A DNA stretch of 64,000 nt, taken from the IMG/VR virus record IMGVR_UViG_3300045988_117002; one strand, given 5' to 3'. The number at the start of each line of letters is the position of its first letter. Position 1 is the stretch's first letter. The translations under genes and the position numbers were made by a program. Source of the DNA: a virus. Below, in pieces: positions 38,624-63,100 of this stretch. Under the pieces are notes generated by a model. The model made no database searches. It had not been told where the DNA came from and saw only the letters and a list, made by a program, of their open reading frames with translations.

Positions 38624-38629
38624 TAGTCA

Positions 38630-38760: not shown

Positions 38761-38832
38761 GTAATACTACTCTTACACCAAAAATGAAAAGAGAATTATT
38801 ACATATAATAAATAAAGGAAGGTGTAAGAATT

Positions 38833-39021
38833 ATGGCATATAGCCCAAAATCACAAAAAGATTATAATGATAGATGTACAGTTGTAAAACTTAAATATAC
38901 ACCAGAAGAAACGGAAGAATGTGCAAGAATGAAACGGTATGCAAAAGATAATAACATACCAATGAGCGTATATATCAAGAAGCTAATACAGGATGATCTT
39001 GACAGAAAAGGTTATAAATAA
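38833..39021 (+). CDS. ribbon-helix-helix-like small protein
   Basis: AAAGGAAGGTG RBS. VVKLKYTPEETEECARMKRYAKDNNIPMSVYIKKLIQDDL has the strand-helix-helix layout and resembles the 15683..15870 product. Confidence 0.55.
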   Translation: MAYSPKSQKDYNDRCTVVKLKYTPEETEECARMKRYAKDNNIPMSVYIKKLIQDDLDRKGYK

Positions 39022-39025
39022 ATAT

Positions 39026-39472
39026 ATGATAGACGATAAAATAACAAAAGAGCACATAGAACATTTAAGAGACATAAACTATTATGATGCTTTAAAGTTG
39101 TTTGATAATGGAAATATACGTTATTTATATGATGATTTATTTATAGAGTATATACGCCACATAATAAAGAAATGCTTGTTTATAACTGATACTGATAACA
39201 TGACAGATATAATATATAAATGTTTTGTTGTATCTGGTAACGTGTCAAGATGTCTTAATATGCTTAGATATAATAATATACAGTATAATCAAAAGTTATC
39301 AAATGGAAGATATAGAGTTAATAAGGAAGACGTATATAACGCTTTGAATAATGGTAGATGTGCAGATATTGAAATAGATTTTATAGCACATTTATTATGG
39401 TATGGAAGAAACTACAATGAATTAGATAGTTATATAGATACTATGTTGTCAAAGATAAAACAGTTGTATTAA
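39026..39472 (+). CDS. hypothetical protein
   Basis: Track ORF 38993..39472. The ATG at 39026 avoids overlap with the upstream gene. Confidence 0.5.
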   Translation: MIDDKITKEHIEHLRDINYYDALKLFDNGNIRYLYDDLFIEYIRHIIKKCLFITDTDNMTDIIYKCFVVSGNVSRCLNMLRYNNIQYNQKLSNGRYRVNKEDVYNALNNGRCADIEIDFIAHLLWYGRNYNELDSYIDTMLSKIKQLY

Positions 39473-39876
39473 CCGCATATAATAGGAAGTAACCCTTTAT
39501 CAATCATTGTGATCTGCATAACCTGTTATCATGCGTAAAATGTACAGATAGCCTTGTAAGCTTGTATTTTGCGTTTTAAGGGCTTTTATATCGTATATGA
39601 TAATTATTATAGGCTTATATGCTTAAAGTCATTTATACGGCGTTTTACAAGGTTGTTTTTAAGATAGGATGTACAAAAAGGTTACATCTGGACTGTTTGA
39701 AACGTGCAACATGATGATATTTATGTATCATTTTAATACATTGTTGAGCGTATTTTTACGTCAAAATGTGCGCTATTTTATGCAAGAATATTGTGTATTT
39801 ATACATTGTTTGCGATGTGTTTTTATGCAAAAATTTGTATAAGATAGCGTTGTTTTTATGGGTGGAATAGGTAAAA

Positions 39877-39898
39877 TATTGCGGTAAAATTGCGGTAA
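39877..39898. repeat. perfect tandem 11-mer ATTGCGGTAAA x2
   Basis: Copies at 39877-39887 and 39888-39898. Confidence 0.8.
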
Positions 39899-40680
39899 AG
39901 TGTGAGTATTTTATCTGATTTATGATGTATTTTTATCTTGTTTAATGTGTGGTTTTATCTGTTTTTATGTGGTGTTTTATGTCCTGTTTTGAGATAATTT
40001 TGTTGTGATCTGTTGTTATATTTTAATCTCTGGACGGTGTTAGAATGCTGTATCTATAATGATTTTAGATGATACAGATTGTATAATGTGGCGTGGTTAG
40101 TGTGGTTATATTATGCGTTGTTTGTGTGGTATTATGTTAGATTATGTGAGTATGTATTGTAGTATATTGTATAGTATATCAGAGGTATTATAATAGTAAT
40201 ATTATGTGGTATATTGTAGATGTATAGTTGGATATAGATAGATGTATATTGTGAGTTATATGTGATGTATAATGTATATTATGATGTATATTATTGTATG
40301 TTTATGGTGTGAATTAAGCGTGAGTATTTGATGTGATAGTATGTTATGTTAATATGATTTTGTAGTGAGTTTGGGATGTAATCTTGTCTGCTGTTGTGCG
40401 TCCAGATTGTTTTATTTCGTCCAGATTTGTGTTATGTAAGTGTGTTACAATTTTTGTGTTACATTTGTGTATTATAGTGTAGTGGTGTGCCATCCCATTT
40501 TTACCGCTGTTTTTGATGATAAAGTGGAGTGTATTAGTCTTATTTGTTACGTTTTTGTGGTGTAAGTGGTGATATGATTTTGTGTTATTATTTTGTGTTA
40601 TAATCTTGTAATCGAATTTTTTGTTGGAAATCCAACATAACGAACAGAATTGACCAATAGTCATTTATTTACGTTTTTTC

Positions 40681-40726
40681 GCTCATTTTCTCTTGTTTTC
40701 TCTTATTTTCTCACTTTTCCTTTTTT
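40681..40726. repeat. four T-tracts phased at exactly 10 bp (..TTTTCTC..)
   Basis: cattttctc ttgttttctc ttattttctc acttttcc. Helical phasing predicts intrinsic DNA bending. Confidence 0.7.
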
Positions 40727-40748
40727 CGAGTATACTATAATAATATTT

Positions 40749-40766
40749 ATAATTGTATATACAATT
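40749..40766. repeat. 18-bp perfect palindrome TAATTGTATATACAATTA
   Basis: Self-complementary. It sits where the plus-strand composition flips from C-poor to G-poor. Confidence 0.8.
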
Positions 40767-42062
40767 AAAATCTCCCGTCCGTGATCTGCGTCCAGAATAC
40801 CCAATAAAATTTTAGTTTTATCATACTAACTTTTATATCCTGTACCACCCCCATGTTTTTGACCGGAGTAAAAATGTCAAATAATAACAAAACTTGACTT
40901 TTTACACTTCCTACAAAAGTGCAAAAGTTAGTTTTATTCAACAATAGCAAGGCTTTTCGGGAATTGCATATTACACTATTTTAATCCGATTTTATGATCC
41001 TGTTTTATAATGTATACCAGTAGGACGGGGATAGTTTACATTTGTAATTTTAATATGATATTGTCATATCCACTGATGAGTTCAACTCACACTACTCGTC
41101 CAAAAATCAAAACTGGTAATCCATCATCCCACACTCGCCTCCAACAGAAAAAATTCTCACCCTCACATCACCTCACAAATTGCACCAAATCTACACACAA
41201 CTCACCAAAATAATCAAAATGAGTTCGAGACGGAGTTCGACCGCACCCTTACATGTCAACGCAAAATAAATTTTCTGACAATTCTAAATCACCAATTTTC
41301 ACCCAAAATTACCTATCCCAAATCACAATATCCCTTGCAAAATCTAACAATTTACGAAGTCCTCTCGAAGCGATACCATCACATAATAAATTTAATCTGC
41401 GCACAATTCCAAATAATTTACTCCATCTTCATCCTGCAATATCCCAAATTCCCTTGCCACATCTACCTAAAACGCAGCAATCACTTCTTATTATAAGCAC
41501 ACATCACTCTCCCATCTCAATCAAAATTATCACCCAAAACACTCCCCTCGAAGTCCCAAATCTCAGCTTACCAGAAAATACCCATCTAAATTGTGTTAAA
41601 CTTTCGCACAATTCTAATCACTAAAATTTACTTAAAAAATATATCATAAAAACTTGAAGTGCCAAATTGACACCTCAAGATACAATCATCAAAAACTCTA
41701 AAATCAATTTTATTCTCACTATTCTAATGTACAACTTAAAGCAGACATCACAACTACCCTCACCTGAGCAACTTAGCATCTGCATATTACAATTTTCAAA
41801 TTAAATCTACATCATATTATCTGCAATAAATATCTCAAACAGAGAATCTTATATACAAAGATATATAGGGGGTACTTTTACATCTACAAAAAATCACTAC
41901 TCTCATATCCCACCTAACCTCAAATTTTCACCAGCAAAAATAAATCCTATTTATTTCAAATAGAGAATCTACAACCAGTAACATGCAAACTAAATATTTC
42001 AATACGCAAAGAGAGAAATAATAATTATCAAAAATCATTAAAATAAAAAGGAGATTACACAA

Positions 42063-42686: not shown

Positions 42687-42701
42687 AGGAGATCAACCAT
42701 T

Positions 42702-43244: not shown

Positions 43245-43268
43245 CGGTTCACATACTGGCAATCCAAG

Positions 43269-43562: not shown

Positions 43563-43625
43563 TTATCCTTTGTGAGAACAAATAAAAAATACACCAAAAA
43601 TCAATTTGAAGGGAGAAACACATAA

Positions 43626-43832: not shown

Positions 43833-43837
43833 TACAT

Positions 43838-44044: not shown

Positions 44045-44171
44045 TACAAGCAAGATGTGGTTTTTTAAAATATATTTTATTTATGAATGTAATGAATAAA
44101 TAAAATATATTTAGTCTGTCTTATTAAAAAGTAGTATATCTTCTTTCTGTTCAGTTTATGGGAACTGGGTA

Positions 44172-45563: not shown

Positions 45564-45806
45564 ATGACAGAAACAGAAAACAGAAAAAACCATGAATACA
45601 GCTATAACAAATATTATACTATGCCAAGCAGAGAAGAATTACATAGAGGATATAGTGGTTGGTTAAACAATGCGGATTTCATTATGTCAAGAGGAAATAA
45701 TCAAAAACAATCCAGAATTGCGGAAAAAATTGCATCCGATTGGCGATTAGATGAACAATTTCATAAAAATATTATTAGTAAAGAAAGAGAGAAAAACAAT
45801 GACTGA
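45564..45806 (+). CDS. hypothetical protein
   Basis: 80-aa ORF; AAAGGAGAA RBS. Confidence 0.55.
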   Translation: MTETENRKNHEYSYNKYYTMPSREELHRGYSGWLNNADFIMSRGNNQKQSRIAEKIASDWRLDEQFHKNIISKEREKNND

Positions 45807-46116
45807 AAGAAATTTTGATAACAATAATGAAAATTGTATTGAATTCCTATCTGGTGAACGATATGCCGTTGCAACTTTTACAAACAGGAAACATATCACT
45901 CGTTTGAAGAAAATTTATGCTGAAAGAAAAGATGAGATTAAATACTTTAGAGAAAATAAAGATGGTAGTATTTGTGTGAAATTTCCTCTTAAATGGGTAA
46001 AGATAAATCCTGGCTCTATACCTGATCCAAATAAACCCAAAAAAGTATTAACAGAAGAACAAAAGGAAAAATTGATACAGAATTTGCAAAAATATCGTGA
46101 GTCTAAAAAGAAATAG
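45799..46116 (+). CDS. hypothetical protein
   Basis: ATG at 45799 (MTERNFDNN...) overlaps the upstream stop by 8 nt. The track's longer start (45751) is unnecessary. Confidence 0.55.
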   Translation: MTERNFDNNNENCIEFLSGERYAVATFTNRKHITRLKKIYAERKDEIKYFRENKDGSICVKFPLKWVKINPGSIPDPNKPKKVLTEEQKEKLIQNLQKYRESKKK

Positions 46117-46283
46117 TATATACCACTACTCTCTTATGTTCAGTTTATCGTAAAATTATAAAGAAATGATAGTCAAATTTCAATTCTACGGTATCTATGG
46201 TTAAGTTGTTCCACCTACAACTTAAAATCGAAATTTACCCAAAATTTATCAATATATATTGAGAATAATTAAATAAGGAAAAT

Positions 46284-46948: not shown

Positions 46949-46949
46949 A

Positions 46950-47387
46950 ATGGGAAGTAAATATTATTGTAACGATTGTGGAGAAATTTACGATAGCTCT
47001 TTATTAAGAACTGATTTATATAGTGCGTATGATATGCCTTGTCCTAAAGCAGGATGCAATGGATCAATGTATGAAGTAGATGAATTAATGTTACCAATAA
47101 TTAAAATTTTGAATGAAAAAGGGTATACAACCAAGTTTTGTTGTTCTGGTCATTATTATCATAGTCCTTCTAGTGGATATTTATGGTTTGAAGAATGGGT
47201 TGAATTACCGAATTTACCAGAAGGATTTTCAATTGATAAAAATACAGAAGTTGGAATTTGTATTCGCCCCACAAGAGCATTTGATAAAAATCATTATGAA
47301 TCTACGGACAAAGATTTTAGCATTATTTGTGACGAAGCAAAGTCTTTATTTGAATGGGCGGTAAATCTCCCAGAAGTGGATTATTAA
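46950..47387 (+). CDS. zinc-ribbon-containing hypothetical protein
   Basis: ATG at 46950 after GGAGGAAAA. YYCNDCGEIY...CPKAGCNG, later FCCSGHYYH. Confidence 0.55.
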   Translation: MGSKYYCNDCGEIYDSSLLRTDLYSAYDMPCPKAGCNGSMYEVDELMLPIIKILNEKGYTTKFCCSGHYYHSPSSGYLWFEEWVELPNLPEGFSIDKNTEVGICIRPTRAFDKNHYESTDKDFSIICDEAKSLFEWAVNLPEVDY

Positions 47388-47445
47388 TTGGGGGTGAGTT
47401 GTCATTAGTGAATATGGAATTAAGATAAAAAATATAAGTGCAGGT

Positions 47446-50169
47446 ATGTTATATGATGTAAACTTAGGAATTAGAGATTATTTTACATATACTGATGCAA
47501 TGTTAAATAATAGTTTATTTAGTTTTTTTCTTAAAAATAATGGGTTGAAAATTCATAAAAGTAAAAATAAAAAAAATGAAAGCACACGTGATATTATTTG
47601 TTTAGATTATGAATTCGGCAGTCGCTCATATGAAGAAGAAAAACAACGACTTGAAAAATTATTCAAAAATTCTGATGACATTTCTAAAGAACGAATAAAA
47701 AATACACTTCAAAAAGTAGAGTCTCAAAAAGATTTATATTCCCCTAAAAAACGTGATGAAATTCGTGAATATTTTTATGAAAATGGTGTTGATGTAACTT
47801 ATAGACGAAAATCACATAATGAAACTATTGAAGAGGAAACAATTCATTATGAAATGTTATTTCGGACAAGTGCAAAAGCTAAATTGGGACAAGTAATTTT
47901 TATTAATAGTAAATTATATGATATTGCTTATGATTGGTTAACAATTGGACTTGGTAAGAAAATGCAATATGATAATGCAAAAATTGTGGAAATGTCAGCA
48001 TATGCACCTCTCACTACATCTACTATTGTTGGAACAATTTATATTCCGGTTGAAGATATTTTAATTTTAAAAGATCAAGATTCATTTTTTAAAACAATTG
48101 CAAATGTGGTAAAAGCTGAAGAATATGTTGATAAAAATAAAAAGACTCAAAAGAAATGTATTGTGTCAAAAGAAGAACGAGAAGTAAAAAACACTATTTG
48201 GGATGGAATGGCATTAATTGAAGCTGATGCTAAATATTTAAAACTTCCTTCTTTTGTTAATGGAATGGCATTATTGAGACAACATTTGTTTAAAGCATGT
48301 AGTTTTAAAGCATATTTACAATTATTTTTTCAACAATGGTGTAGAGAAAATGGACATGATTATAATACATACAGAGTTCAAGATATGTTTGGCAAATGGC
48401 ATTATCTAAAAGATATTAAAATGATTACTACTGATAATGCAATTAAATGGAAAAAATTTGCGGATTTAATGGGGAATAACTTAACAGAAGCATATGAATA
48501 TTGGTGTGATAAAATTCGTGCAGATAAAAATGTTTGGGGAATTGTAAAAACAGACCACCCAAGTAAACTTGGAGAATATCAACAACTTAGTTATCAAATG
48601 ATAAATACCCTTCCTTGTACAAGTGATGATGTTAAAGATATTGCAAAAATAAGCATTGATTATATAGAAACACTAAAACAAAATAATGATGAGTTTGAAA
48701 AGTTTCTTAGAAAAAACGCAAATGAAGTAAATCATTATGAAATGTTAGCTGATTTATATGCACAAAACCATAATTTTGGAAATAGTAAATTTTTTAGATA
48801 TGAAAAAAAAGAAATTATTAAGCAATATGTTTTTCGTATGAGAAAAGGAAAGATTATGGTAAACGGTGATAATCTTACTGTATGTGGTAATCCATATGCA
48901 TTACTACTTTATTCGGTTGGTGAAAATTTTGAAAAAGATCCTTGCTTTAGTCAAGAATTTGGAACTATACAATGTTATACAAAACGTTTTGGTAACAATG
49001 AGTATCTAGCAGCATTTCGTAATCCACATAATTCCCCAAATAATGTTTGTTATTTACATAATGTATATTCTAATGAAATGGAAAAATATTTTCCATTTAG
49101 CAAAAACATTATTGCTATAAATTGTATTCGTACTGATATTCAAGATAGAGCTAACGGGATGGATGAAGATTCGGATTTTATGTTAGTTACAAATCAGCCA
49201 ACAATTGTGAGATGTGCAAAAGAATGTTATGAAAATTTCCCGACTATTGTAAATGCTTTAAAAGAATCTGGAATCACATATACAAATAGTAAAAAAGATT
49301 ATGCCGCGATGGATAATAAGTTTTCAAAATCACGTATGGGAATTGGATATTCAAGCAACCTAGCGCAATTGGCAATGACGTATTATTGGACGGAAAAGCA
49401 TAAAGAAGATCCAGATAAATCACGTTTAAAAGAATTATATGATAATTTTATTATTCTATCAGTTCTTGCGCAAGTTATTATTGATGGATGTAAACGAGAA
49501 TATGAAATTGATAGTAATAAAGAAATTGATCGTATAAGTAAGCTTCAATGTATGTCTATGAAAAAATTAATAGGATATACTTCGACTGGTAAATCAAAAT
49601 ATCAAAAATGTGATTTTCCAGAATTTATGAAATACACAAGAGAGATCAAATATACTAAAGATGGAAAAGAACTACCTCAAGAAGAAATAAATGAATCAAA
49701 AAACAAATTAAAAAATCGCATCAATGATAATTTATTATGTCCTATGAATTGGCTTGAAAAATGGCTTGATAAAATACAGCATGCTACTACTTCTGATGCA
49801 TATGAAACTTCTAAGTTTTTTATTAAAATGTCAGGTGATGCAAATAGAAGACAAATGACAAAAATAATGAAAATAATTGAAGATTATGATTCATGTATTA
49901 AAATTGTAAAAGCTAATTCAAAAAACAATGATGAATATGTAAAATTTATAATTGAGAAAAATGAAGAAATTATAAATGAATTATCTAAAATGAAAATCAA
50001 AAACATTGTTACTATAAATAGACTTATAGAGCTTGCACTTGGACTAAGTTCTGAAAAAGGTGCTTCTAAATCCAGAACATATAATCCAGAAAAATACAAA
50101 AGAAAAATATTGAATCTATTGTACAAAATTGACAAAAATAGATTTTTAGCTAATTTTTCTTGTGAATAA
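47446..50169 (+). CDS. YonO-like single-subunit RNA polymerase candidate (two-barrel, RdRP-related)
   Basis: 907-aa ORF. AAFRNPHNSPNNVCYLHNV...(32 aa)...RANGMDEDSDFMLV (D573/D575/D577, nt 49162-49176) mirrors the RNPxxxPGD...GGDLDGD block of cellular RdRPs/YonO and the NADFDGD loop of beta-prime. HU gene nearby, as in SPbeta. The frame is open back to 47398, with GGGGGTGAG and an in-frame ATT at 47404, so the true start may be non-canonical. Confidence 0.6.
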   Translation: MLYDVNLGIRDYFTYTDAMLNNSLFSFFLKNNGLKIHKSKNKKNESTRDIICLDYEFGSRSYEEEKQRLEKLFKNSDDISKERIKNTLQKVESQKDLYSPKKRDEIREYFYENGVDVTYRRKSHNETIEEETIHYEMLFRTSAKAKLGQVIFINSKLYDIAYDWLTIGLGKKMQYDNAKIVEMSAYAPLTTSTIVGTIYIPVEDILILKDQDSFFKTIANVVKAEEYVDKNKKTQKKCIVSKEEREVKNTIWDGMALIEADAKYLKLPSFVNGMALLRQHLFKACSFKAYLQLFFQQWCRENGHDYNTYRVQDMFGKWHYLKDIKMITTDNAIKWKKFADLMGNNLTEAYEYWCDKIRADKNVWGIVKTDHPSKLGEYQQLSYQMINTLPCTSDDVKDIAKISIDYIETLKQNNDEFEKFLRKNANEVNHYEMLADLYAQNHNFGNSKFFRYEKKEIIKQYVFRMRKGKIMVNGDNLTVCGNPYALLLYSVGENFEKDPCFSQEFGTIQCYTKRFGNNEYLAAFRNPHNSPNNVCYLHNVYSNEMEKYFPFSKNIIAINCIRTDIQDRANGMDEDSDFMLVTNQPTIVRCAKECYENFPTIVNALKESGITYTNSKKDYAAMDNKFSKSRMGIGYSSNLAQLAMTYYWTEKHKEDPDKSRLKELYDNFIILSVLAQVIIDGCKREYEIDSNKEIDRISKLQCMSMKKLIGYTSTGKSKYQKCDFPEFMKYTREIKYTKDGKELPQEEINESKNKLKNRINDNLLCPMNWLEKWLDKIQHATTSDAYETSKFFIKMSGDANRRQMTKIMKIIEDYDSCIKIVKANSKNNDEYVKFIIEKNEEIINELSKMKIKNIVTINRLIELALGLSSEKGASKSRTYNPEKYKRKILNLLYKIDKNRFLANFSCE

Positions 50170-50421
50170 TGCACCAAAATTACACGATTAAATTGTTAAA
50201 AACGCCTGGAAGTGTCTATTTTATTGAATTTTTAAGCTATACTTATAGGGTGTAATATGGAGAGAGAAAACGCAAAATTGTGTGAGTAGGCTTCCACGCT
50301 ATTGCCAATGCGTGTAATTAAATATGGACTTGCAAGTTTAAAAGTATACTAGGGGCAGACGTAGTATTATCTGCCCTGAAACAAAATAATTAAATGATTA
50401 GTTAAAAAGGAGAATCAGTAC

Positions 50422-51033
50422 ATGATTTTAAAAGAAGCATATCGCTATCAGAACTTTCTTACAAACCTTATTAGCAATGCACAGACATATCTTGGAAGTG
50501 GATCATTTGTCATGACAACTACTCAAAGACATATGAAAAGCAAAGCTAATCCAGAAGCAACTGATGATGATTTGGAAGTTCCAAAATCTTATAATGTAGA
50601 TTTCACACCAATTCAATTAGTTGATTTCCTAATGGATACAATTCAAGAAAAGCAAAAGTTGTCTGATGCTATCGCAGAAGCTAAGAAAAATACTGAGATT
50701 GATTTGGATTCTTCTTATGCTATGAATAAAACAAAACAGAGCCTTGCTAAAGTCTTCAAGACGATGGCTGGTAGAAAAGCTACTGAGACTGAAAAGCAAG
50801 GTCGAGATTATAGATTCAATGTCAACCAGGAGCAGGTTGCTTATACATACACTATCAAAGAAGTTACCAAACTTGACTATGATAGAAATGTGGTCAAAGC
50901 ACTTGCAAAGAAATTAGCAAAAGAAACAGATGAAGTTTCAACTAAACTTGATCAGCTTGAGCTTACTACTCTTGTTGACCATGAACCTAAGTATGATATG
51001 AATGATACACTTGAAGATATTGTGGTGAAGTAA
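50422..51033 (+). CDS. hypothetical protein
   Basis: 203-aa ORF; AAAAGGAGAA RBS. Confidence 0.6.
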   Translation: MILKEAYRYQNFLTNLISNAQTYLGSGSFVMTTTQRHMKSKANPEATDDDLEVPKSYNVDFTPIQLVDFLMDTIQEKQKLSDAIAEAKKNTEIDLDSSYAMNKTKQSLAKVFKTMAGRKATETEKQGRDYRFNVNQEQVAYTYTIKEVTKLDYDRNVVKALAKKLAKETDEVSTKLDQLELTTLVDHEPKYDMNDTLEDIVVK

Positions 51034-51865
51034 AATTCACCACTACTCTTCTATTCGGATATTTACAAGAGACTAAGATTGATTCGTAATGGTCAATCGG
51101 TTCAGATGCAGATGAACTGTGATGCTGCGAGGTAGATGATAATACCAGAATTGTCATAATTAAAATTTAAAAAAGAATATGTCATACATATTATTATAGA
51201 TATTATTGGGTAAGTATAAGTTATACTTAACATTGGAAATTTAAGAAAAATCAAGATGATTCGTTAATCAACATTACGTTTCATTAATGCGAAAATACAA
51301 GATTTCATTATTTCGATATTCCAACAATTTGTAAATTCGATAAAACAATATACGTTTCGTTAATATTAATTCTTAAAAGAATATATCGGGCGAAAAGCCT
51401 AAACATTTGAAGGGACGAATTATTCAAATTCGATCGAAACATTTGTGTTTCAGATGAAATTAAAAGGTTTTGTGCAATTTTTGTACAGATTTTTAGCAAA
51501 TTGGTTGAGATTATGGAGAAATCTTAGTCTGTTTTATGTATTCGAATGGATGTTAGTTTTACTACGGTATATTTTGATGCCGAAGAGTGAGAACTTAGTT
51601 ACTCACTAAAATCTATGTTTTAAAAAAATAGATACAAAACTTATGAATATCCGAATAGAAATACAGTTATAATTAATTTTGCGATTAATTGGTATAGTAA
51701 TCGGTGGTTGCACTGTTGTTTCGCCTTTCTTTTAACGGTGCAATCGCTGGTTTTCTTTTGATTATAATAAGAAAGCTGAGTCGTGATATTTGAGCCGAGA
51801 GGTGAATGATATGTAAAGTAAATTTTTGATTAAAAGATAATTAGACTATTTGAAAAGACAGATAT

Positions 51866-51950
51866 GGCAACGTGGCAGAATTGGCAAATGCTCCTGACTT
51901 GAAATCAGTGAACCCGAAAGGGTATGTGGGATCGAAACCTACCGTTGTCG
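51866..51950 (+). tRNA. type-II tRNA-Ser (anticodon TGA)
   Basis: Hand fold: acceptor GGCAACG/CGTTGTC (one G.U), 3-bp D stem GCA/TGC, anticodon loop CTTGAAA, long variable arm ACCC-GAAA-GGGT, T arm GTGGG-ATCGAAA-CCTAC, discriminator G. Atypical A at position 54 and a 27-43 mismatch. Confidence 0.65.
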
Positions 51951-52019
51951 TTACTCTCCTACTTGGAGAAATAAATGCAAAGGACGTGAATTGTTATAAA
52001 AGCAATTAGTAAAAAAGAA

Positions 52020-52172
52020 ATGGAATACCTTATGAAGAAAGGCTTTAAGTTCCATGAAGACATTTTTAAGACATATAGTGGTAAGAATAAATACTACTAT
52101 AGAGAATGCAATGCTATTAATAAGACATTAGATGATTACCATAATGGATTAAATGTTGTGGAATATAAATGA
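52020..52172 (+). CDS. hypothetical protein (50 aa)
   Basis: Hand translation MEYLMKKGFKFHEDIFKTYSGKNKYYYRECNAINKTLDDYHNGLNVVEYK. ATGA overlap with the next gene. Confidence 0.4.
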   Translation: MEYLMKKGFKFHEDIFKTYSGKNKYYYRECNAINKTLDDYHNGLNVVEYK

Positions 52173-53649
52173 CAGAAAAGAAAGATAAAATATATAGGAA
52201 AGGTGGTAAGTTACCATCGGAAAGAAAAAGAAAAACAGTGTTAAAATATCATTTATAGACTCACCATCATCAGAAGATGTTACAGGGAGTCTTATTTATA
52301 TTTCAACACAGAATCATCGAATTTTAGTTGATTGTGGCTTACATCAGACAAATGACAAGTATAAAGATTTTTTGGTAAACAATCGTAAATATAAAGAATT
52401 TAAACCAAAGGACATTGATTTTGTATTTATCACTCACAATCATGGGGATCACTGCTTGTTATTACCGAAATTATATAAAGAAGGATGTAGAGCTGCCACT
52501 ATTGTTTCAGAAGGATCAAAGCAAGTTTTGAAAGATATGGCAATTGATTCTGCTTTAATTAGTGAAAGAGACATATTGGTTATCAATTCTCAGAATAATA
52601 AGAATTATTCACCACTTTATTCTATAGAAGATGTAAACAAAATGTTGGAATATACACTAGAGAAACCAACAAATGAAAAAATTATCATTGATGATGAATT
52701 AGCTTTTGAATTAATTCCAAGTGGTCATCTTCTTGGAAGTTGTCAAGTGAAATTATATTTTACTGTTGATGGACTAACAAAAACCTGTTTAGTTACAGGA
52801 GATTTAGGAAATAAGATAATTCATAATAGATTTGTTGGTGAGTATCAACAAGTAGATTATGCTGATGTTGTTATTGGAGAATCAACATACGGAGATAGAC
52901 CTGATTTAAAAACTGGACTTAAAGAACGAAAAAATGATTTAGAAAAATTTAAAGCAATTATAGAAACACAAGTTCATGAAATGAAAGGACGGGTTGTTAT
53001 CCCAAGTTTTGCGCAATCAAGACTTCAACAACTTGTACTGATGATTTATGAAATGTATAAAGATTCTCAATGGAAACCAAAAGTGTATATAGATTCACCA
53101 TTGTCTATTAAGATTTTTGATGATTATGAAGAATGCTTAACAGGTGAAGATAAAAAACTTTTTGATGAAATGATTCAAGATAAGATATTTACTTTTGTAA
53201 AAGAATCCGAAGACAGTAAAGCACTTGTACAAAGTAATGAACCTTGTGTAATTTTATCAACCAGTGGCATGTGCATGGTCGGCAGAATCAGGCATCATTT
53301 AAAAAAATGTATTCCAAATCCTAATGCTACGATGCTTTTTGTGGGGTTCAGTACAGATGGAAGCCTTGCTTCACTTTTAAAAGACAATAAACGTAAGTCT
53401 GTTACTATTGATCAGAAAGAATATCCGTGTAGATGTGCTTCTTATTCATTAAAATCAATGAGTGGACACGCACCATTCTGGCAGCTGATAGATAATTATA
53501 CAAAAATTAATAGTCAAAAAATTGTTTTACATCATGGTTCTAAACAAGCAAAAGAAACATTAAAAATTGCTCTTGAAAAAGAATTAGAGAAGCAATGTAA
53601 GTCAACAAGAGTTGTAATCGCAAACTCAAGTTTAAAATTTACATTATAA
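52169..53649 (+). CDS. beta-CASP metallo-beta-lactamase-fold nuclease (frame break in an A-rich tract near 52221-52236)
   Basis: ITHNHGDHC (HxHxDH). The N-terminal MBL strand ISFIDSPSSEDVTGSLIYISTQNHRILVDCGLHQ lies upstream of the track's TTG start in the same frame but has no start codon. An ATG-led ORF (52169, MTEKKDKIYRKGGKLPSERKRKT..) lies one frame away and meets it in GAAAGAAAAAGAAAAAC. Confidence 0.75.
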
Positions 53650-53680: not shown

Positions 53681-54325
53681 ATGACAAATAAAAAAAAAGC
53701 AGATACAGCATATCTTGATATTGCTATTCCACAAAATGCAGAAAACCTTCAATTACCAGATCCATCTCTACTTCAATTTTATAAAAATTACGAAAATAGA
53801 ATAATCTGGATTGACGATGAGATTACTACTATGACATTGGAATACGCAAAAATGATTATGCAATGGAATTTTGAAGATAAACAAAAGAATATTCCTATTA
53901 ATGAGCGTACTAAAATTAAAGTTGTATTCTTTAGTCCTGGTGGAGATTTAGAAGTAAATAATTGTCTTGTTGATACAATCTCACTTAGTCAAACTCCTGT
54001 CGTTGGAGTAAATGTCGGTATGGCGGCTTCAAGTGGATGTTTTATTTATCTTGCTTGTCATGAACGACTAACTCTACCTTCTGCTGAATTCCTCATTCAT
54101 AAAGGAGCAGGACAATTTAGTGGTTCTTATAATGATGTAGTTGCTGCTATTTTAAATTATCAAAGACAAATTGATGAACTTGGTAAATTTGTATTATCCA
54201 GAACAAATATACCAGAAGATATATTCTATGAAAACTTTGAAAATGACTGGTATTTATCTGCAAAAGAAGCTATCGAGTACAAAGTAGCAGATAGAATTAT
54301 TAAAAGTTTAGACGAAATTATCTAG
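53681..54325 (+). CDS. ClpP-family serine protease
   Basis: FFSPGGDLEVNNCLVDTI...VGMAASSGCFIYLACHERLTLPSAEFLIHK...WYLSAKEAIEYKVADRII parallels E. coli ClpP GQAASMGAFLL..R..LPNSRVMIHQP...FMSAPEAVEYGLVDSIL (Ser and His in place). Confidence 0.85.
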   Translation: MTNKKKADTAYLDIAIPQNAENLQLPDPSLLQFYKNYENRIIWIDDEITTMTLEYAKMIMQWNFEDKQKNIPINERTKIKVVFFSPGGDLEVNNCLVDTISLSQTPVVGVNVGMAASSGCFIYLACHERLTLPSAEFLIHKGAGQFSGSYNDVVAAILNYQRQIDELGKFVLSRTNIPEDIFYENFENDWYLSAKEAIEYKVADRIIKSLDEII

Positions 54326-54358
54326 GAAGAGTGGTTATCACTACTCTTCTATTTTTAT
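54326..54358 (+). terminator. hairpin plus T-run carrying the CACTACTCTTCTATT motif
   Basis: gaagagtggt-tatc-actactcttc (10 bp, one G.U), then TATTTTTAT. Confidence 0.6.
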
Positions 54359-54388
54359 GCAAATATATAGATTCAAGGAGAAGAAAAC

Positions 54389-54586: not shown

Positions 54587-54594
54587 TAAGTTGG

Positions 54595-55869: not shown

Positions 55870-55897
55870 GGAGAGTACACCGCTACTCTCCTATTTT
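55870..55897 (+). terminator. hairpin plus T-run carrying the CGCTACTCTCCTATT motif
   Basis: ggagagta-caccgc-tactctcc (8 bp perfect), then TATTTT. Confidence 0.6.
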
Positions 55898-55929
55898 AGT
55901 ATAAATATATAGAAGAAAGAGGTTTAAAA

Positions 55930-56205: not shown

Positions 56206-56221
56206 TAAGAGGGTTAATTAT

Positions 56222-56818: not shown

Positions 56819-57090
56819 TCTATCTTTATAATAGACATAGATCTCCTTTTAGTGTGCGTGGGTGTCATAGCTTACGCACTCTTTTTATATTCCATTGGAT
56901 TGTTTTGATCAATGGAGAATTAATTATTGGGTGGGATGGATAATCCCTCAAAGAGTAAACGTAGGATGGTTGGTACTCTCCTATCTCTGAACCTCTGTAA
57001 ATATTAACTGGTTGGTCAGTTAGACCAATAAAGAGAATTACAAGCGTAGGCTTATCTCTACCTTCAATTGTATTATTGGAGGATTTTTTA

Positions 57091-57897: not shown

Positions 57898-57959
57898 ATA
57901 TCAAGTACATAGAGAGACAGTTTTAATACTGTCTCTTTTATAAAAATTTATGAAAGGAA

Positions 57960-59000: not shown

Positions 59001-59274
59001 TGTAAAATAACCCATCAAAGCCCGTAGTGTAGACCAAACACACCTATATGGAAACAAGCGCACGACATCGGACTGTCAAATCGCTTCGGGCAAATACCTT
59101 TCTTTCTATATATTTTTGTTTCATATTTCTTCTCAAAAGAGACATAACTTTTTCATATGATCTCTTCTCCTGAAAAGGGCAGCTCACTACTGCCCTATCT
59201 TAAAGCAAACTTGTCCTTTACAATATTTTCCAATTGTGATAATGTAAAAATATCAAAAATTGGAGGTGTTGTAT

Positions 59275-60252
59275 ATGGAGTTCAACAGAAAGACACAAAC
59301 TGTCAAATCATTTGCACGAGATATGAAAAATGGAAAATACAATATGTTCCATAAACTACAGCGAAAAGAAGGACAATGGAAAAATTATGAGCAGAGCTTA
59401 TTGATCGACTCAATGCTTCGCAACTATCCTGTTGATCCTATTCGTTCAGAAGAAAAAGAAGATAAAATCAGATATGTGTTTGACGGTGTTCAGCGTAGTA
59501 CAACTATCAGAGATTTCTTAACTGATGGATTCAAATTAAGCCAAAAGCTGAAACCAGTAGCAATCGAAGGCACTGTATATAACATTGCAGGTAAGAAATT
59601 CTCACAATTTGATGAAGTTGTCCAGGATAAAATCAATGACTATGAAATGATACAATATATCTTTTCTGATTGTACAGATGAAGATATTCGTGAAATGTTC
59701 CGTAGACAGAATGGTGGAAAACCATTATCCAATACTCAGAAAAGAAAATCATTAGAGAGTGATGAAGTTAGTGCAATTATCTTTGATGTTGCAAATCATC
59801 CATTCTTTGCAAAAATATTATCGCCAACACAATTGAAGAAAGATGTTGCGAATGATATTGTGCGTCAGACACTTATGTTGATTAATACTACAGATGATAA
59901 TGATTTTACATCATTCAGAGCGAAAGATATTGATACATTTGTAGAATGGTATAATGAACATGTTGATGAGAAAGATATTATTTTATTGAAATCTGCTCTG
60001 GCATTCTTGGATGAAAAATTTGAAGAAAAACTTAATCTCAAGTCTACTTCTCTTCCGATGATGTTATATGCTGCATATACATGCGTGAAGAATGAAAAAG
60101 ACTTTGATGAATTTGTAAATATTGTGCAGGAATTTGTAAATAGCTATGGTGATAATATGGACTATGTTCAGTATTGTACCAGCGGTACATCTTCTGCTCA
60201 GTCTGTCCAAGGAAGATTTAATTACTGGAAGAATCTTTGCAAAGGATTATAG
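59275..60252 (+). CDS. DUF262 (ParB/Srx-fold) protein, paralog of the central part of 6007..8304
   Basis: ATG after TGGAGGTG. FHKLQRKEGQWKNYEQSLLIDSMLRNYPV...YVFDGVQRSTTIRDFL. The C-terminal ..TSGTSSAQSVQGRFNYW parallels ..NGQKGTKDRSSVTKRFNHL of the 765-aa protein. Confidence 0.7.
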   Translation: MEFNRKTQTVKSFARDMKNGKYNMFHKLQRKEGQWKNYEQSLLIDSMLRNYPVDPIRSEEKEDKIRYVFDGVQRSTTIRDFLTDGFKLSQKLKPVAIEGTVYNIAGKKFSQFDEVVQDKINDYEMIQYIFSDCTDEDIREMFRRQNGGKPLSNTQKRKSLESDEVSAIIFDVANHPFFAKILSPTQLKKDVANDIVRQTLMLINTTDDNDFTSFRAKDIDTFVEWYNEHVDEKDIILLKSALAFLDEKFEEKLNLKSTSLPMMLYAAYTCVKNEKDFDEFVNIVQEFVNSYGDNMDYVQYCTSGTSSAQSVQGRFNYWKNLCKGL

Positions 60253-60306
60253 CATATAATATTGCTGAATCAAATAAGAAAGCATGGATTTATTCGATGT
60301 TATGCT
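60233..60306 (+). pseudogene. 3' remnant of a gene homologous to 60735..60986
   Basis: The alternative frame reads ..LQRIIAYNIAESNKKAWIYSMLC*, compared with ..LIAKIIGDVAELNKKAWIYSML* at the end of 60735..60986. 37/41 nt identical (60261-60301 versus 60942-60982). Confidence 0.6.
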
Positions 60307-60486
60307 GAAATAATATAAATTTAATTTATATTCAGGTAATTCCATACCTGTATAGTGAGGTAATTACACTCACTAAATATTGTAGAATGAAATACGATAA
60401 TGGAAATAGAAACTTAATATTGAAATTTATGAGAAGTCGCCTTATTGGTGGCTTCTTTTTGTATACGAAAAAAATGGAGGTATTAC

Positions 60487-60735
60487 ATGGCAGCTAATTT
60501 ATTAAAAGTTGGTAATGATCCAAACTCAGCAATCAAAACATTTTGCGTAGATACTATTGAAGAAATTGCAAAACTTCCTACTATGGAACATGGCGCAACA
60601 GGTGATTTTGCAAATATTCCTGGTCTTGAATCTCCTGCTCCTATGGGAAGTCAAGCTATTGTAGGAAATGAATCAGGCACAGTGAAAATCTATATGCTGT
60701 TTTCATTTGGTTGGAAAGATACAGGCACAGAATAA
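60487..60735 (+). CDS. hypothetical protein
   Basis: ATG at 60487 after TGGAGGT; 82 aa. Confidence 0.55.
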   Translation: MAANLLKVGNDPNSAIKTFCVDTIEEIAKLPTMEHGATGDFANIPGLESPAPMGSQAIVGNESGTVKIYMLFSFGWKDTGTE

Positions 60736-60986
60736 TGGATGTATTATCTTATATTATTACAAGCAGACTTCTCTCCTGTCCTGGTGGAAATGGGGCAAAT
60801 ATTAAACTAGATGAAAACGGAAATATTATTACAGATGAAGATGCAACATTGTATGTAGATTTTCCTACTGCAAGTTTGATGACTGATGGAGATATATTCT
60901 CAGTTACAAATAGTTATTTAATCGCAAAAATTATTGGTGATGTTGCTGAGTTAAATAAGAAAGCATGGATTTATTCAATGTTGTAA
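60735..60986 (+). CDS. hypothetical protein
   Basis: TAATG overlap with the upstream gene; 83 aa. Its 3' end is duplicated at 60261-60301. Confidence 0.55.
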   Translation: MDVLSYIITSRLLSCPGGNGANIKLDENGNIITDEDATLYVDFPTASLMTDGDIFSVTNSYLIAKIIGDVAELNKKAWIYSML

Positions 60987-61024
60987 AAGAGTCATTCACG
61001 ATGATGTGGGTGGCTCTTTTATTA
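60986..61024 (+). terminator. rho-independent terminator
   Basis: aaagagtca / tggctcttt (9 bp, one G.U) with trailing TTTTATTAT. Confidence 0.55.
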
Positions 61025-61038
61025 TGCAATTTTGTTGT

Positions 61039-61231
61039 TTCGTATAGAGTGATTATTTCACTCTGCGATTATATTTAAAGGTTTCCTTCATAAATGTAGA
61101 ACGACTATTATTCCCCCCCCCTTCAACCCAAAATAGTCGCTCTATACGAGACAATAAATGAAACATATAAACCGCAGTTTCGCTGAAACTACGGTTTCGA
61201 CTCCACTTTGCTAAGGCAAAGCGGTGTCGGA
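61039..61231 (+). other. GC-rich multi-hairpin element with a C9 loop (unclassified RNA or DNA structure)
   Basis: Long-range pair tcgtatagag(61040-49)/ctctatacga(61140-49). Inner stem cgactatt(61102-09)/aatagtcg(61132-39) encloses CCCCCCCCC (61113-21). Then hairpins at 61170-61196 and 61197-61231. Confidence 0.4.
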
Positions 61232-61283
61232 GATATAGATATTTTACTTTAAAGAATTTTAAACATTACAGGAGGATTTTGTT

Positions 61284-61880
61284 ATGGCAAAAACAAAGAA
61301 AACAGTTTATCTAAGTGAAGATTATGGTGTAATTGACACTATAACAGGAGAATTAAAAAGTGAAAGCGGTGATACCGCAAATCTGGTTATGAGAAAAATT
61401 ACAGTTGAAGAATTATTTGAAGAACCAGAAATAGAAAACAATGAGGTTAGATTTATGGATGATACTACATATATTAGAAGTTTTAGAGGTAATGGTGTGT
61501 TATTTCGACAACTATTGACTGCCGAAGAAACTCAGTTAGCATTATTCTTGCAAGATTTTGTATGCTATAACGATTGTATTTTAAGAACTAATGGAAATAA
61601 ACAAGGAAATCCATTAACCCTTGATATGTTGGCAAGTATGTATGGATTAAAATATGATACTTTCAGAAAGATTATGTCATCTTTAAAGAATAAAGAAGTT
61701 ATTGCATATCATAAATCTGGAAGTGCAAGTCCAGAGAAAAATAAAATGAAATGTATTACTTTAAATCCTTACATATTCTGTAGAGGTATGGAAGTTGATA
61801 AATGGATTAGTGATTACTTTTCAAATAGTCAATGGGCTAATTTTGAACGTCAGAAAATCAAAAAATATACAAAAGATTAA
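61284..61880 (+). CDS. winged-helix DNA-binding protein, RepL-like
   Basis: ACAGGAGGA RBS. The layout F..LLTAEETQLALFLQDFVCYNDCIL....PLTLDMLASMYGLKYDTFRKIMSSLKNKEVIAYHK...ITLNPYIFCRG resembles the remembered Firmicute RepL pattern. Unverified. Confidence 0.45.
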   Translation: MAKTKKTVYLSEDYGVIDTITGELKSESGDTANLVMRKITVEELFEEPEIENNEVRFMDDTTYIRSFRGNGVLFRQLLTAEETQLALFLQDFVCYNDCILRTNGNKQGNPLTLDMLASMYGLKYDTFRKIMSSLKNKEVIAYHKSGSASPEKNKMKCITLNPYIFCRGMEVDKWISDYFSNSQWANFERQKIKKYTKD

Positions 61881-62041
61881 TGATACAACAATATAGTATT
61901 AAGAGTTAGCGATGCGAAAATTCTTAAAATCACTTGTGAATATTGAATATTATAAAACGTACTTATCCGAAATTTGACTCATTTTCGGAATATTAATGAC
62001 GGTTTTTATTTTACATCAAATACACATTAAAGGAGCTTAAC

Positions 62042-62224
62042 ATGGAAACAAGAATTGTATTTAAAATTAGCGTAGCAAGACAATTAATCAAACTCGGATA
62101 TAGAGTTATTGATCTAAAACCTCAGAAGAAAAAAGATGGAAACTTAGATTTTACGAGATGTTATTTTGTATTTGAATACCAGAAGGGACTTGATGATGAT
62201 ATTAGATTACTAATTAATAAGTAA
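62042..62224 (+). CDS. small protein, DUF5659-like
   Basis: AAAGGAGC RBS. FKISVARQLIKLGYRVIDLKP...RCYFVFEYQKGLDDDI resembles the remembered DUF5659 pattern. Flanked by a 12-bp inverted repeat. Confidence 0.5.
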   Translation: METRIVFKISVARQLIKLGYRVIDLKPQKKKDGNLDFTRCYFVFEYQKGLDDDIRLLINK

Positions 62225-62438
62225 TTTCGGATTCTCAATGCCTTTGATGGCACTCATATTCCGAAAAATTAGTAGAAACTACTAAACATTTGCAGAAATG
62301 ATTTTTAATATTATGGGAAGATTATACAACTAAATTTAGATTATAAGAGAAAATCTCAGAATCCCTTGGTACACTTGAAAACCTTGTTCACAGAAATACT
62401 ATCTTTTTAATTTTGTGAACTCATATTATGATTTTTAC

Positions 62439-62470
62439 GGAGAGTGGTTTTATAACTACTCTCCTATTTT
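62439..62470 (+). terminator. hairpin plus T-run carrying the AACTACTCTCCTATT motif
   Basis: ggagagtgg-ttttataa-ctactctcc (9 bp, one G.U), then TATTTT. Confidence 0.55.
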
Positions 62471-63100
62471 AATGGAGAAATAAATATTGACTATAAGCGG
62501 TTGGCGTTTGTTGTCCTGTCGGTGGGGTGTAGTTGAATCTTAATAGAGTGAGAAACTAAGGAAGTCATGAGCCTTGGCATAGTAGATACTCGCACTACTC
62601 TCTCACTCTATTGTACTAAAGATGTTTGCGAGTGGAAAGCGAGAAATTGGAATTATGGGTTTATTAACAAAAGAAATTGAAGTAACATTAAATTCAAGAA
62701 ATATAGAGCATTATGCGAATTTGGGATATGAAATTCCAAAATATTATAATAAAAATAGTTGTACTTGGAGAGTGAAAAGAAATACTAAAATAATAGTTAA
62801 AATTGAAGATGTTCCAAAATTCACAAATTATTTAGTTGATGTTCAATGTGATAATGAAAATTGTGCTAATGTTTTACATATGCCATATCAAAGATATAAT
62901 TATCATCTTAAAAACGGTAAATATTATTGTCAAAAATGCGCAATGGCTATTTATAATAGTGGAGAAAATAATCCTTCATGGAATCCCAATCTAACAGATA
63001 AAGAAAGAATTACAGGTAGACATTTTCCAGAATATAAGGATTTTGTCAAAAGAGTTTTAGCAAGAGATCATTATACGTGTAAATGTTGCGGACATTCTAG

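Follow-up and report, generated by a model that had tools for sequence, protein, structure and literature searches.

A strand-specific intergenic repeat in a phage with a YonO-type RNA polymerase gene is probably the conserved half of a terminator-like hairpin family

Introduction

Hairpins between successive genes of an operon are well known from the RNase III sites of the T7 early region and from the processing sites of SP82, where cutting leaves protective 3' hairpins or 5' stabilisers. The stoperators of mycobacteriophage L5 (cluster A) are asymmetric sites of about 13 bp that occupy short intergenic spaces in a single orientation with respect to transcription, and the promoter-early stem-loop cassettes (PeSLs) of T4-type phages were reportedly proposed by Arbiol et al. 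in 2010 to mediate modular shuffling. Here we analyze a short intergenic repeat, with the exact 8-mer ACTACTCT, in a 64,000-nt stretch of viral DNA (IMG/VR record IMGVR_UViG_3300045988_117002; hereafter, the window), which is AT-rich (G+C about 30%), belongs to a large phage or prophage and encodes a single-subunit RNA polymerase (RNAP) of the YonO family.

For YonO, a single transcription start has been mapped upstream of yonK, with the promoter left undefined (Forrest et al. 2017; PMC5467207). Our literature search found no promoter or terminator signal for YonO-type single-subunit RNAPs, and no paper on the promoter subsequent to that study in the library searched. In phage P23-45, which has two-barrel single-subunit RNAPs, both promoter motifs and a 26-nt terminator motif are conserved (PMC10770324). 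In a previous reading of the window from its letters alone (the sequence-only reading), the repeat had been taken for a combined terminator/promoter cassette. We conclude, with a probability of roughly 0.55, that the rightward transcript forms a family of terminator-like or 3'-end hairpins and that the motif is the half of them in which sequence is conserved, from the 3' end of the loop through the 3' arm to the first bases of the tail.

Results

Strand bias and enrichment of the repeat

The genes of the window run leftward over about 37 kb and rightward over about 25 kb. The 8-mer ACTACTCT occurs eight times on the plus strand (38.7-62.6 kb) and never on the minus strand, and seven of the eight copies are intergenic. 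The strand-specific, intergenic plus-strand motif perceived in the sequence-only reading is hence borne out, as is the absence of its reverse complement from the leftward arm, and the motif is equally frequent neither on both strands nor inside genes. No other 8-mer of the right arm is as over-represented (8 copies versus 0.22 expected under a second-order Markov model). When the longer 14-mer is searched with up to two mismatches, the outcome is again eight matches, all on the plus strand, versus 1.43 expected over both strands from shuffled sequences, and none of 100 shuffles reaches eight. Chance or base composition as the origin of the repeat is ruled out by the shuffles and the Markov expectation, and coding constraint is ruled out for the window by the intergenic location of the sites; only the copies at 41896, within a G-free block, and 50965, within a gene, could plausibly be chance matches. 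An unbiased ranking of k-mers on the coding strand of the left arm revealed no motif of comparable enrichment.

All ten main sites named in the sequence-only reading carry the sequences quoted for them, those at 51952 and 56972 only in part (TACTCTCCTA only), and exact or near-exact copies lie at 38766, 41895, 46124, 51041, 54339, 55881, 62454 and 62593. The 27 identities it had counted over the 33 positions of 54339-54371 and 55881-55913 are exact. Its degenerate copy at 44130 turned out to be no match to the motif, sharing only the downstream block TGTTCAGTTTAT with the 46125 site, and its related sequence at 37848 contains ACTACTC only. That reading had overlooked the copy at 50965 as well as a hairpin variant (59177-59195) whose loop is CTCACTA. 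The claim that the motif heads nearly every rightward unit was too strong, because about 12 intergenic gaps of the right arm are devoid of the motif and several copies border on the stop codon of the preceding gene: the copy at 46125 lies 8 nt past a stop codon and 159 nt ahead of the next start, the hairpin at 54325 begins at a stop codon and the copy at 51042 overlaps the end of its gene. The 12-mer TGTTCAGTTTAT itself is found at 44150-44161, ahead of the GIY-YIG endonuclease gene, and at 46137-46148, behind the 46125 copy.

The comparison was extended to 91 related phage loci, which together with the window amount to 1.94 Mb. Of these loci, 80 are the best of 106 matching IMG/VR stretches (on contigs of up to about 220 kb) and 11 come from metagenome-assembled genome (MAG) contigs named Lachnospiraceae, Acetatifactor, Eubacterium and similar. 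In the relatives, ACTAC[CT]CT occurs 210 times on the plus strand versus 8 on the minus strand, and [AG]CTCT[CT]CTA[TC]T 119 times versus none. The raw count for ACTACTCT (125 versus 8) overstates the bias, since many of these matches are orthologous coding copies; restricted to intergenic sites, the figures are 66 versus 6. The exact 8-mer is confined to the clade of the window, with variants in other clades, and a motif scan of the viral collection gave scattered single matches among the matches listed.

A covarying hairpin in the rightward transcript

In the motif string, ACT is the last part of a loop, ACTCTYC forms a 3' arm, and the dinucleotide TA and a T-rich tail follow; many copies form the 3' arm of a hairpin whose 5' partner is GGAGAGT(R). 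The consensus of the resulting family reads (A)GGAGRGY, a loop ending in ACT, RCTCTCC, TA and a T-rich tail (TATTTT). Anchoring 142 distinct instances from the window and its relatives on the core revealed no conservation at a fixed distance beyond some 13-15 nt. Substitutions of T for C in the 3' arm are matched by A for G in the 5' arm in the cases inspected by eye, and relatives with a 77%-identical RNAP carry ACTGCTCTCC at the orthologous site together with a compensating change in the 5' arm.

Pairing was then quantified with a covariance model (R1; cut-off E <= 1), which was seeded with nine members of equal length because MAFFT misaligned the 5' arms of hairpins with unequal loops. The model yields 61 hits in the 1.94 Mb, 60 of them on the strand of the RNAP gene. 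In the alignment of 45 distinct sequences, 94.2% of the stem cells pair, versus 85.3% in shuffles, and changes on both sides affect six of the eight stem pairs; these values were not attained in any of 500 shuffles. As the alignment was fitted to the model, these counts lean toward the structure, and they agree with the cases seen by eye and with controls in which the structure was slid by one to three columns, where only 47-63% pairing is left. One-sided changes are nearly all G.U or U.G, according to our reading of the pair-type table, and the inner pairs are almost never broken. Since such changes would be A.C mismatches on the other strand, they point to a fold in the plus-strand transcript.

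The site behind the ClpP gene illustrates this pattern. It is orthologous in all clades, its hairpin always starts from the stop codon and it contributes 14 of 44 distinct copies. Its arms are GGAAGAGTGGT/ACTACTCTTCT in the window, GGAGAGTA/TACTCTCC in loci L018 and L022, GGAGRGCR/YGCTCTCC in the clade with the 77%-identical RNAP and GGAGGGC/GCCCTCC in L026; the site alternates between GGAGAGT/ACTCTCC, GGAGAGC/GCTCTCC and GGAGGGC/GCCCTCC.

The predicted folding energies at 51013, 54325, 55870 and 62439 lie between -12.9 and -18.5 kcal/mol, with z-scores of -2.3 to -4.2, far beyond those of shuffled sequences, and a generic terminator scan flags three of the four as terminator-like. At least four hairpins followed by TATTTT had been reported from the sequence alone; three are clean (54325-54350, 55870-55891 and 62439-62464) and the fourth (51013-51051) has the weak tail TATTCGG. 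Across the family, stems have 7-11 pairs with G-C at the base, loops have 3-7 nt and a T-rich tail (at least five T in the 9 nt past the stem) follows in 32 of 44 distinct members; in the window it is present at 54325, 55870 and 62439 and absent at 51013 and 59177. Of 45 distinct members, about 32 have ACT at the end of the loop and about six have GCT, a count somewhat biased by the ACT or GCT loops of the seeds. The loop ACT also survives replacement of the stem, by GGGCAG/CTGCCC at 59177 and by GGACAGT/ACTGTCT in L015, L011 and L023, and the TA behind the stem hardly varies. The string ACTACTCTCC persists with stems of 7, 8 or 9-11 bp, and ACT is therefore sometimes loop and sometimes stem. 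The impression of a 3' side conserved beyond the needs of a terminator is accordingly upheld, as the loop ACT, the 3' arm and the TA behind the stem are kept though the stems covary. A second conserved block (GGAGAAATAAAT, TTGGAGAAA or AAATATATAGA) often lies behind the hairpin, and because GGAGAAATAAAT or AAATATATAGA so often trails it, cassette is a fair term.

Against Rfam at the gathering threshold, the whole window matches two tRNAs only, and a relaxed scan of 50100-52400 adds nothing. Other structured elements were considered and rejected. The acceptor stem of tRNA-Ser, GGCAACG, is unrelated to GGAGAGT, which disposes of a tRNA-like acceptor minihelix. Integron attC sites have R''/L''-L'/R' boxes, span 57-141 nt and adjoin an IntI integrase, whereas the hairpins described here are about 25 nt long, with GGAGAG/CTCTCC arms and no GTTRRRY. 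The boxes that define REP-like mobile repeats are absent.

Position relative to genes, tRNAs and module junctions

All hairpin copies of the window lie downstream of the RNAP gene, as do most R1 matches in the relatives. Terminator-like sites on the plus strand number none within 38.8-51.0 kb and seven beyond. Those of the left arm's coding strand show no sequence relation to the hairpin family, which therefore belongs to the right arm. For family members the median spacing is 99 nt to the preceding stop and 46 nt to the following start, and in the window the distance from motif to next start ranges from 28 to 824 nt. An association with tRNA genes is also apparent: the motif lies at most 40 nt upstream in 19 of 204 distinct tRNA contexts (about 1.3% expected), with the hairpin usually ending 6-12 nt ahead of the tRNA, and it lies immediately behind a tRNA in four contexts. 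Many relatives carry the hairpin GGGTGG-TACTCTT-CCACCC 6 nt ahead of tRNA-Glu (L004 22278, L017 21667, L027 19668 and L031 21781, among others), with the ACTCTT string in its loop and not in an arm.

Homology with the closest relatives breaks exactly at the boundary between tRNA and TTACTCTCC (51951), and the same block is preceded by four different tRNA 3' ends, those of the window, of L001/L003, of L002 and of L213. Further breaks fall some 20 nt past the 41896 copy (41928), where homology with L002 stops, and just past the 62455 hairpin and GGAGAAAT (62481), where homology with L093 ends. Breakpoints away from copies lie at 45752, 46281, 46949, 56165/56204 and 61241; in this small sample, three of about eight breakpoints are at or near copies.

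Persistence of the copies across an RNAP replacement

Searched with the RNAP gene of the window, the phage collection contained no near-identical DNA. A phage scaffold identified through its divergent RNAP, MT835469.1 (L213), was recognized by model search and blastn as akin to the window, with 92-97% identity over 42.3-46.9 and 51.9-61.2 kb and 76-85% over 39.5-41.9 kb. Phages like it derive from human faeces. In this scaffold, positions 8490-13653 replace 46949-51926 of the window and encode a YonO homologue only 26.6% identical to the RNAP of the window, and the right junction of the swap is the tRNA/TTACTCTCC boundary. The copies at 41896, 46125 and 51951, the weak one at 56974 and the hairpins at 54340, 55882, 59177 and 62455 are all retained with few or no changes. 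A promoter or terminator tuned to one polymerase would not be expected to outlast such a replacement. MAG relatives with RNAPs 60-69% identical have almost no copies of the motif.

Neither a block at a fixed distance upstream of the genes served nor dependence on the cognate polymerase, as a single-subunit RNAP promoter would display, was found. A bipartite promoter made of the motif and a downstream GAGAAT or TATATAGA block was rejected on account of its variable spacing (16, 20 and 25 nt), and a sigma-A promoter within the hairpin loops for want of an acceptable -35/-10 pair. A scan for sigma-70-type promoters detected no good candidate beside the hairpins, the only sequence to qualify being 38732-38760, which has no hairpin.

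A second strand-specific motif

A second, more abundant intergenic motif, (A)AAC-AGAGAAT-A(WATA), which includes AACAGAGAATA, is also strand-specific. In the ORF-free DNA of relatives, CAGAGAAT occurs 97 times on the plus strand versus none on the minus strand; for GAGAATAT the counts in relatives are 141 versus 7. It is placed behind hairpins and tRNAs, commonly 10-30 nt ahead of start codons though with a broad spread, in either arm of the window its sites are on the coding strand, and it recurs at many sites in L004-L069. AACAGAGAATA is the better promoter candidate, and may be a phage-specific promoter or a leader element.

Individual sites and gene context

The sites of the window and the features discussed with them are collected in Table 1.

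Table 1. Repeat copies, second-motif sites and associated features of the window (z, fold z-score; model E, E value under R1).
Feature	Position	Strand	Remarks
Second motif, minus-strand sites	37787, 37286, 30733, 28789, 27116, 11798, 1601	-	
Second motif, plus-strand sites	38790, 41841, 41962, 45478, 57032; variants 51965, 62474	+	
Gene for 765-aa protein ('sigma-like fusion' of the sequence-only reading)	6007-8304	-	Weak N-terminal match to phrog_1740 (sigma factor), E = 1.3e-4
Three operator-like palindromes, TAGGGTACCCTA	38611-38697		One variant, TAGGTTACCCTA; precede the early rightward promoter
Early rightward sigma-A-like promoter	38732-38760	+	TTGACA-17-TAATAT with TG (near-consensus, extended -10); conserved in L002, L003, L044
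ACTACTCTTACACC	38766-38779	+	Predicted +1 of early promoter; no 5' arm, no T tail; z = +0.37
Hairpin-less copy CACTACTCTCATATC	41895-41909	+	Within G-free non-coding block
CACTACTCTCTTATG	46105-46138	+	Imperfect hairpin only, AAGAAATAGT / ACTACTCTCTT; no T tract; z = +0.68
YonO-family single-subunit RNAP gene	47446-50169	+	907 aa; phrog_8308, full-length match, E = 5.6e-86
ACTACTCT	50965-50972	+	Inside 203-aa gene; probably chance or coding copy
Two-tier hairpin GAAGA..GTGGTGAA-loop-TTCACCAC..TCTTC	51013-51058	+	Motif is the 3' side; tail TATTCGG; -17.9 kcal/mol, z = -2.95
Half copy TTACTCTCCTACTT, then GGAGAAATAAATG	51951-51977	+	Adjoins tRNA-Ser 3' end; small CTCC/GGAG hairpin possible; mosaic junction
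beta-CASP/RMMBL nuclease gene	52372-53649		Right arm
Terminator-like hairpin GGAAGAGTGGT-tatc-ACTACTCTTCT + ATTTTTAT	54325-54358	+	From ClpP stop codon; -14.5 kcal/mol, z = -3.57; model E = 0.022
Terminator-like hairpin GGAGAGTA-caccgc-TACTCTCC + TATTTTAG	55870-55899	+	Upstream of HU gene; model E = 3e-6
Weak copy GGTACTCTCCTATCTCT	56955-56987	+	Short alternative pairings AGAGTA/TACTCT or TAGGA/TCCTA; z = -0.76; conserved in relatives
Variant member GGGCAG-ctcacta-CTGCCC + TATCTTAAAG	59177-59205	+	Other stem, loop CACTA kept; model E = 0.098
Terminator-like hairpin GGAGAGTGGTT-ttat-AACTACTCTCC + TATTTTAAT, then GGAGAAATAAAT	62439-62485	+	-18.5 kcal/mol, z = -4.16; model E = 1e-4
Long hairpin AATAGAGTGAGA...TCTCACTCTATT	62541-62612	+	Upstream of HNH-like gene; L074 and L064 orthologues aligned by model

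The copy at the predicted start of the early promoter has a counterpart, ACTACCCT, in L044 (RNAP 73% identical), where spacer, -10 element and the bases that follow are all different. For the copy at 41896, a chance match within the surrounding G-free block has an expectation of about 0.09, as estimated from base composition. The hairpin at 51013-51058 is the first on the plus strand past the RNAP and orf203 genes, and in L001 and L002 an A-to-G change in it yields a G.U pair. In the long hairpin at 62541-62612 there is a conserved insert of about 45 nt, GGAAGTCATGAGCCT.., the 3' side of which carries CACTACTCT. The insert corresponds to 62555-62600 of the window, 18130-18206 of L074 and 18686-18762 of L064; in its region a CACTC pairs with GAGTG at the start of the coding region and covaries in L033 (CACCC/GGGTG), and it may be a small structured RNA or an attenuator.

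The assignment of the RNAP is supported by SPbeta YonO, which falls in phrog_8308 as well (E = 0), and by a BLASTP alignment of the GMDEDSDF of the 907-aa protein with the DxDxD motif of YonO. Other products of the right arm are antirepressor-like proteins, a GIY-YIG endonuclease, a dCMP deaminase, tRNA-Ser, the beta-CASP nuclease, ClpP, an exonuclease, HU, an antirepressor, a tyrosine recombinase and a GmrSD-N protein. The central part of the 765-aa protein matches phrog_2598. The first rightward gene (38833-39021) encodes a product resembling a ribbon-helix-helix protein. An ORF-free gap (39473-42062) contains about 0.8 kb nearly free of C (39850-40650) and then about 0.95 kb nearly free of G (41080-42040). 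The GC skew near this divergence point of the arms is +0.34 and +0.28 over 39-41 kb and -0.53 over 41-42 kb. Both blocks are kept in L002, L003 and L213 at 76-90% identity and could be an origin, an R-loop region or a non-coding RNA. At the far end of the window, two adjacent minus-strand ORFs (63129-63901) resemble an IS transposase split by a frameshift. They directly adjoin the HNH-like gene (62622-63137) at its 3' end, and this gene may be truncated.

The primer-extension amplicon used by Forrest et al. for the YonO promoter (P_YonO) maps to the gap between yonN and yonK of SPbeta. This amplicon holds a GGAGA-ttcc-TCTCC hairpin and, 35 nt past the hairpin, CTACTCCCTTCTTTTCT, and CTACTCCCTTC immediately follows the hairpin; the published start (B. 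subtilis 168 coordinate 2225998) could not be placed on the phage record (NC_001884), and the resemblance (the GGAGA/TCTCC hairpin and CTACTCCC) is a lead only. The SPbeta gap, which harbors the YonO start site and a non-coding RNA, gives a match to DUF3800-VIII RNA (L211 4410-4475). Its syntenic counterpart in the window is an 832-nt ORF-free stretch (51034-51865) that separates the RNAP module from tRNA-Ser and has no Rfam match at E <= 0.1. The order RNAP, HU, late genes is common to SPbeta and the Enterocloster phage PMBT24.

Discussion

A punctuation role for the hairpins

The hairpin copies combine a stable, G+C-containing stem-loop with a position downstream of a gene on its coding strand, and they closely follow stop codons or flank tRNA genes at a distance of a few bases. 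We infer from these features that most copies are Rho-independent terminators, or 3'-end-forming and stabilizing hairpins, which punctuate the genes downstream of the YonO-type RNAP gene and which would thus terminate or stabilize RNA. Early transcription from the sigma-A-like promoter at 38732 would run hairpin-free for about 12 kb, through the RNAP gene, and would meet the first family member at 51013-51058. Each of the hairpins downstream would then stop or attenuate transcription, or else mark or protect a 3' end, for instance after cutting of the adjacent tRNA by RNase P, and expression could resume from a downstream element or by read-through. On the best reading of the data, the cassettes may serve also as short homology blocks at module junctions. 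The copies without a 5' arm (38766, 41896, 46125 and 51951) may be factor-binding sites or recombination half-sites at short conserved blocks, and the invariant loop ACU and post-stem UA may be read by a trans-acting factor; the conserved loop and the single-stranded copies do suggest a sequence-specific reader, and it is here that novelty could lie.

Several points weigh against a role in termination, which is itself deduced from sequence. There is no good T tract in 12 of the 44 distinct members, mostly those just upstream of tRNAs, and the terminator-like sites of the right arm at 56854 and 60431 have no motif. The loop ACT and the TA behind the stem are conserved beyond what an intrinsic terminator requires. 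Finally, termination leaves the four copies without a hairpin unexplained, among them the one at 38766, which lies at the +1 of the early promoter and is conserved in L044.

Alternative explanations

The hairpin might be a dedicated signal for a trans-acting phage factor, an antiterminator or a processing enzyme, read through the loop ACU, the 3' arm and the post-stem UA, a possibility that we rate as low. Formulated as the recognition element of a phage-encoded RNA-binding factor, the proposal overlaps with punctuation by terminators and gives the conserved bases a reader, but in that form it seems to us rather doubtful. The factor might be an antiterminator that binds single-stranded ACUACUCU, is loaded at the leader copy at the early +1 and blocks closure of the hairpins downstream; in such a case the single-stranded 38766 copy would be the loading site. 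Alternatively, a processing endonuclease, such as the beta-CASP nuclease encoded in the same arm, might cut the polycistronic RNA at the hairpins. The proposal draws on the conservation of ACTACTCTCC in every pairing register, on the loop ACT that is kept when the stem is replaced (59177; L015), on the hairpin-less copies, one of them at the 5' end of the early transcript and conserved in L044, and on the copies directly beside tRNA genes, which are RNA-processing sites. Nonetheless, the binding protein is purely hypothetical, an antiterminator that binds the 3' arm has no clear precedent, since those known attach to the 5' arm or to sequence upstream of it, Group A relatives keep the hairpin yet have a PhoH-like gene in the position of the beta-CASP gene, and the loop count is biased by the seeds of the model. 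The reader might also be YonO-type polymerases in general, if specificity survives 27% identity, but this is less likely. As regards a signal for one particular polymerase, the main idea of the sequence-only reading, namely a promoter, an initiation signal or a dedicated terminator for the YonO-type RNAP or for the sigma-like protein (6007-8304), we find it improbable, and a promoter for the YonO-like RNAP unlikely. It could appeal to the copy at the early promoter start, to the copies 6-12 nt upstream of tRNA genes, to the first hairpin, which follows the RNAP module and precedes the ORF-free gap syntenic with the SPbeta region of the YonO start, to the candidate resemblance with the P_YonO amplicon (GGAGA-ttcc-TCTCC and CTACTCCCTTCTTTTCT, the start site being unplaced) and to the conserved promoter and 26-nt terminator motifs of P23-45 (PMC10770324). 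What speaks against it is that MT835469.1 leaves the flanking copies nearly unchanged around a 27%-identical RNAP, that MAG relatives at 60-69% RNAP identity are nearly devoid of copies, that the pairing pattern reveals selection for an RNA hairpin, that hairpins start at upstream stops while anything from 28 to more than 800 nt separates them from downstream starts, and that no bases at a fixed distance on either side of the core are conserved. Of the terminator/promoter cassette, then, the cassette and the terminator-like hairpins stand, but the promoter role conflicts with retention across the RNAP swap, with RNA pairing and with the location at stop codons.

Two further explanations treat the repeat as a DNA element. 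It might be a linker for recombination, an intergenic block kept because it mediates module exchange, as proposed for the PeSLs of T4-type phages, and devoid of any regulatory role. The breakpoints at or within some 20 nt of copies (51951 exactly, with its four different upstream tRNAs, 41928 and 62481) and the RNAP-module swap of MT835469.1 that ends at the tRNA/motif junction are congruent with this idea, but other breakpoints (45752, 46281, 46949, 56165/56204 and 61241) are off copies, and stem covariation and T tails indicate selection on RNA structure. Such a linker is compatible with terminator-like punctuation and does not replace it, and as the sole explanation it appears quite unlikely. 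More improbable still is a stoperator-like operator, in which a phage repressor would bind double-stranded ACTACTCTYCTAT and block elongation in lysogens, as in L5. The asymmetric core of 13-15 nt, the intergenic copies all oriented with transcription, the copy overlapping the start of the early lytic promoter and the clade-specific 8-mer with variants elsewhere, as immunity groups would show, all fit such sites. Stoperators would be expected on every repressed arm and need no hairpin, whereas the left arm has no copies and the 5' partner covaries, revealing a single-strand hairpin that a DNA operator does not need. Moreover, clades that differ in their early regions have the family core CTCTCC-TA in common, three palindromic operator-like sites already accompany the early promoter and the repressor is purely hypothetical here.

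Significance

Phages with YonO-type RNAPs are common in gut Lachnospiraceae metagenomes, as attested by the 106 related IMG/VR stretches. If the hairpins are only terminators, the finding is an ordinary one save for their unusual sequence conservation. If a trans-acting factor does read them, large SPbeta-like gut phages would be seen to time gene expression by a new route, and the YonO transcription program would have its first associated cis-signal. The hairpin family and the AACAGAGAATA motif provide concrete fragments for in vitro transcription and reporter assays and can aid the annotation of operon boundaries in uncultivated phages, and the RNAP swap of MT835469.1 constitutes a natural control for polymerase-dependent signals.

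Comparison with known systems

The hairpin family shares with Rho-independent terminators a G-C-based stem, in most copies a T-rich tract behind it, location on the transcribed strand downstream of stops and pairing of the RNA type. It departs from them in that the loop ACU, the 3' arm and the post-stem UA are conserved across paralogous sites and across phages with 60-100% identical RNAPs, while about a quarter of the copies lack a U tract and some lack the 5' arm. In P23-45, a Thermus phage, several transcript 3' ends of the pre-early units likewise share one conserved sequence (PMC10770324). By analogy, and without a comparison of the sequences themselves, P23-45 can be taken as a precedent for sequence-conserved terminators in phages with two-barrel single-subunit RNAPs, although its motif is tied to the virion RNAP and that of the window survives an RNAP swap.

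Like PeSLs, the cassettes of the window are repeated in intergenic regions, join a stem-loop to a second regulatory block and in some cases lie at or near mosaic boundaries. In a PeSL, however, a sigma-70 early promoter precedes the stem-loop, whereas in the window the hairpin comes first, and no sigma-A consensus accompanies the motif except at 38732. As in T7 and SP82, related hairpins separate successive genes of one operon, but the stems of the window (8-11 bp) are too short for RNase III. Stoperators have in common with the repeat a single orientation with transcription, intergenic location and one site at the early promoter, and differ from it as double-stranded protein-binding sites that have no hairpin partner and occur on both arms. 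The repeat is probably best described as a novel form of terminator or punctuation cassette.

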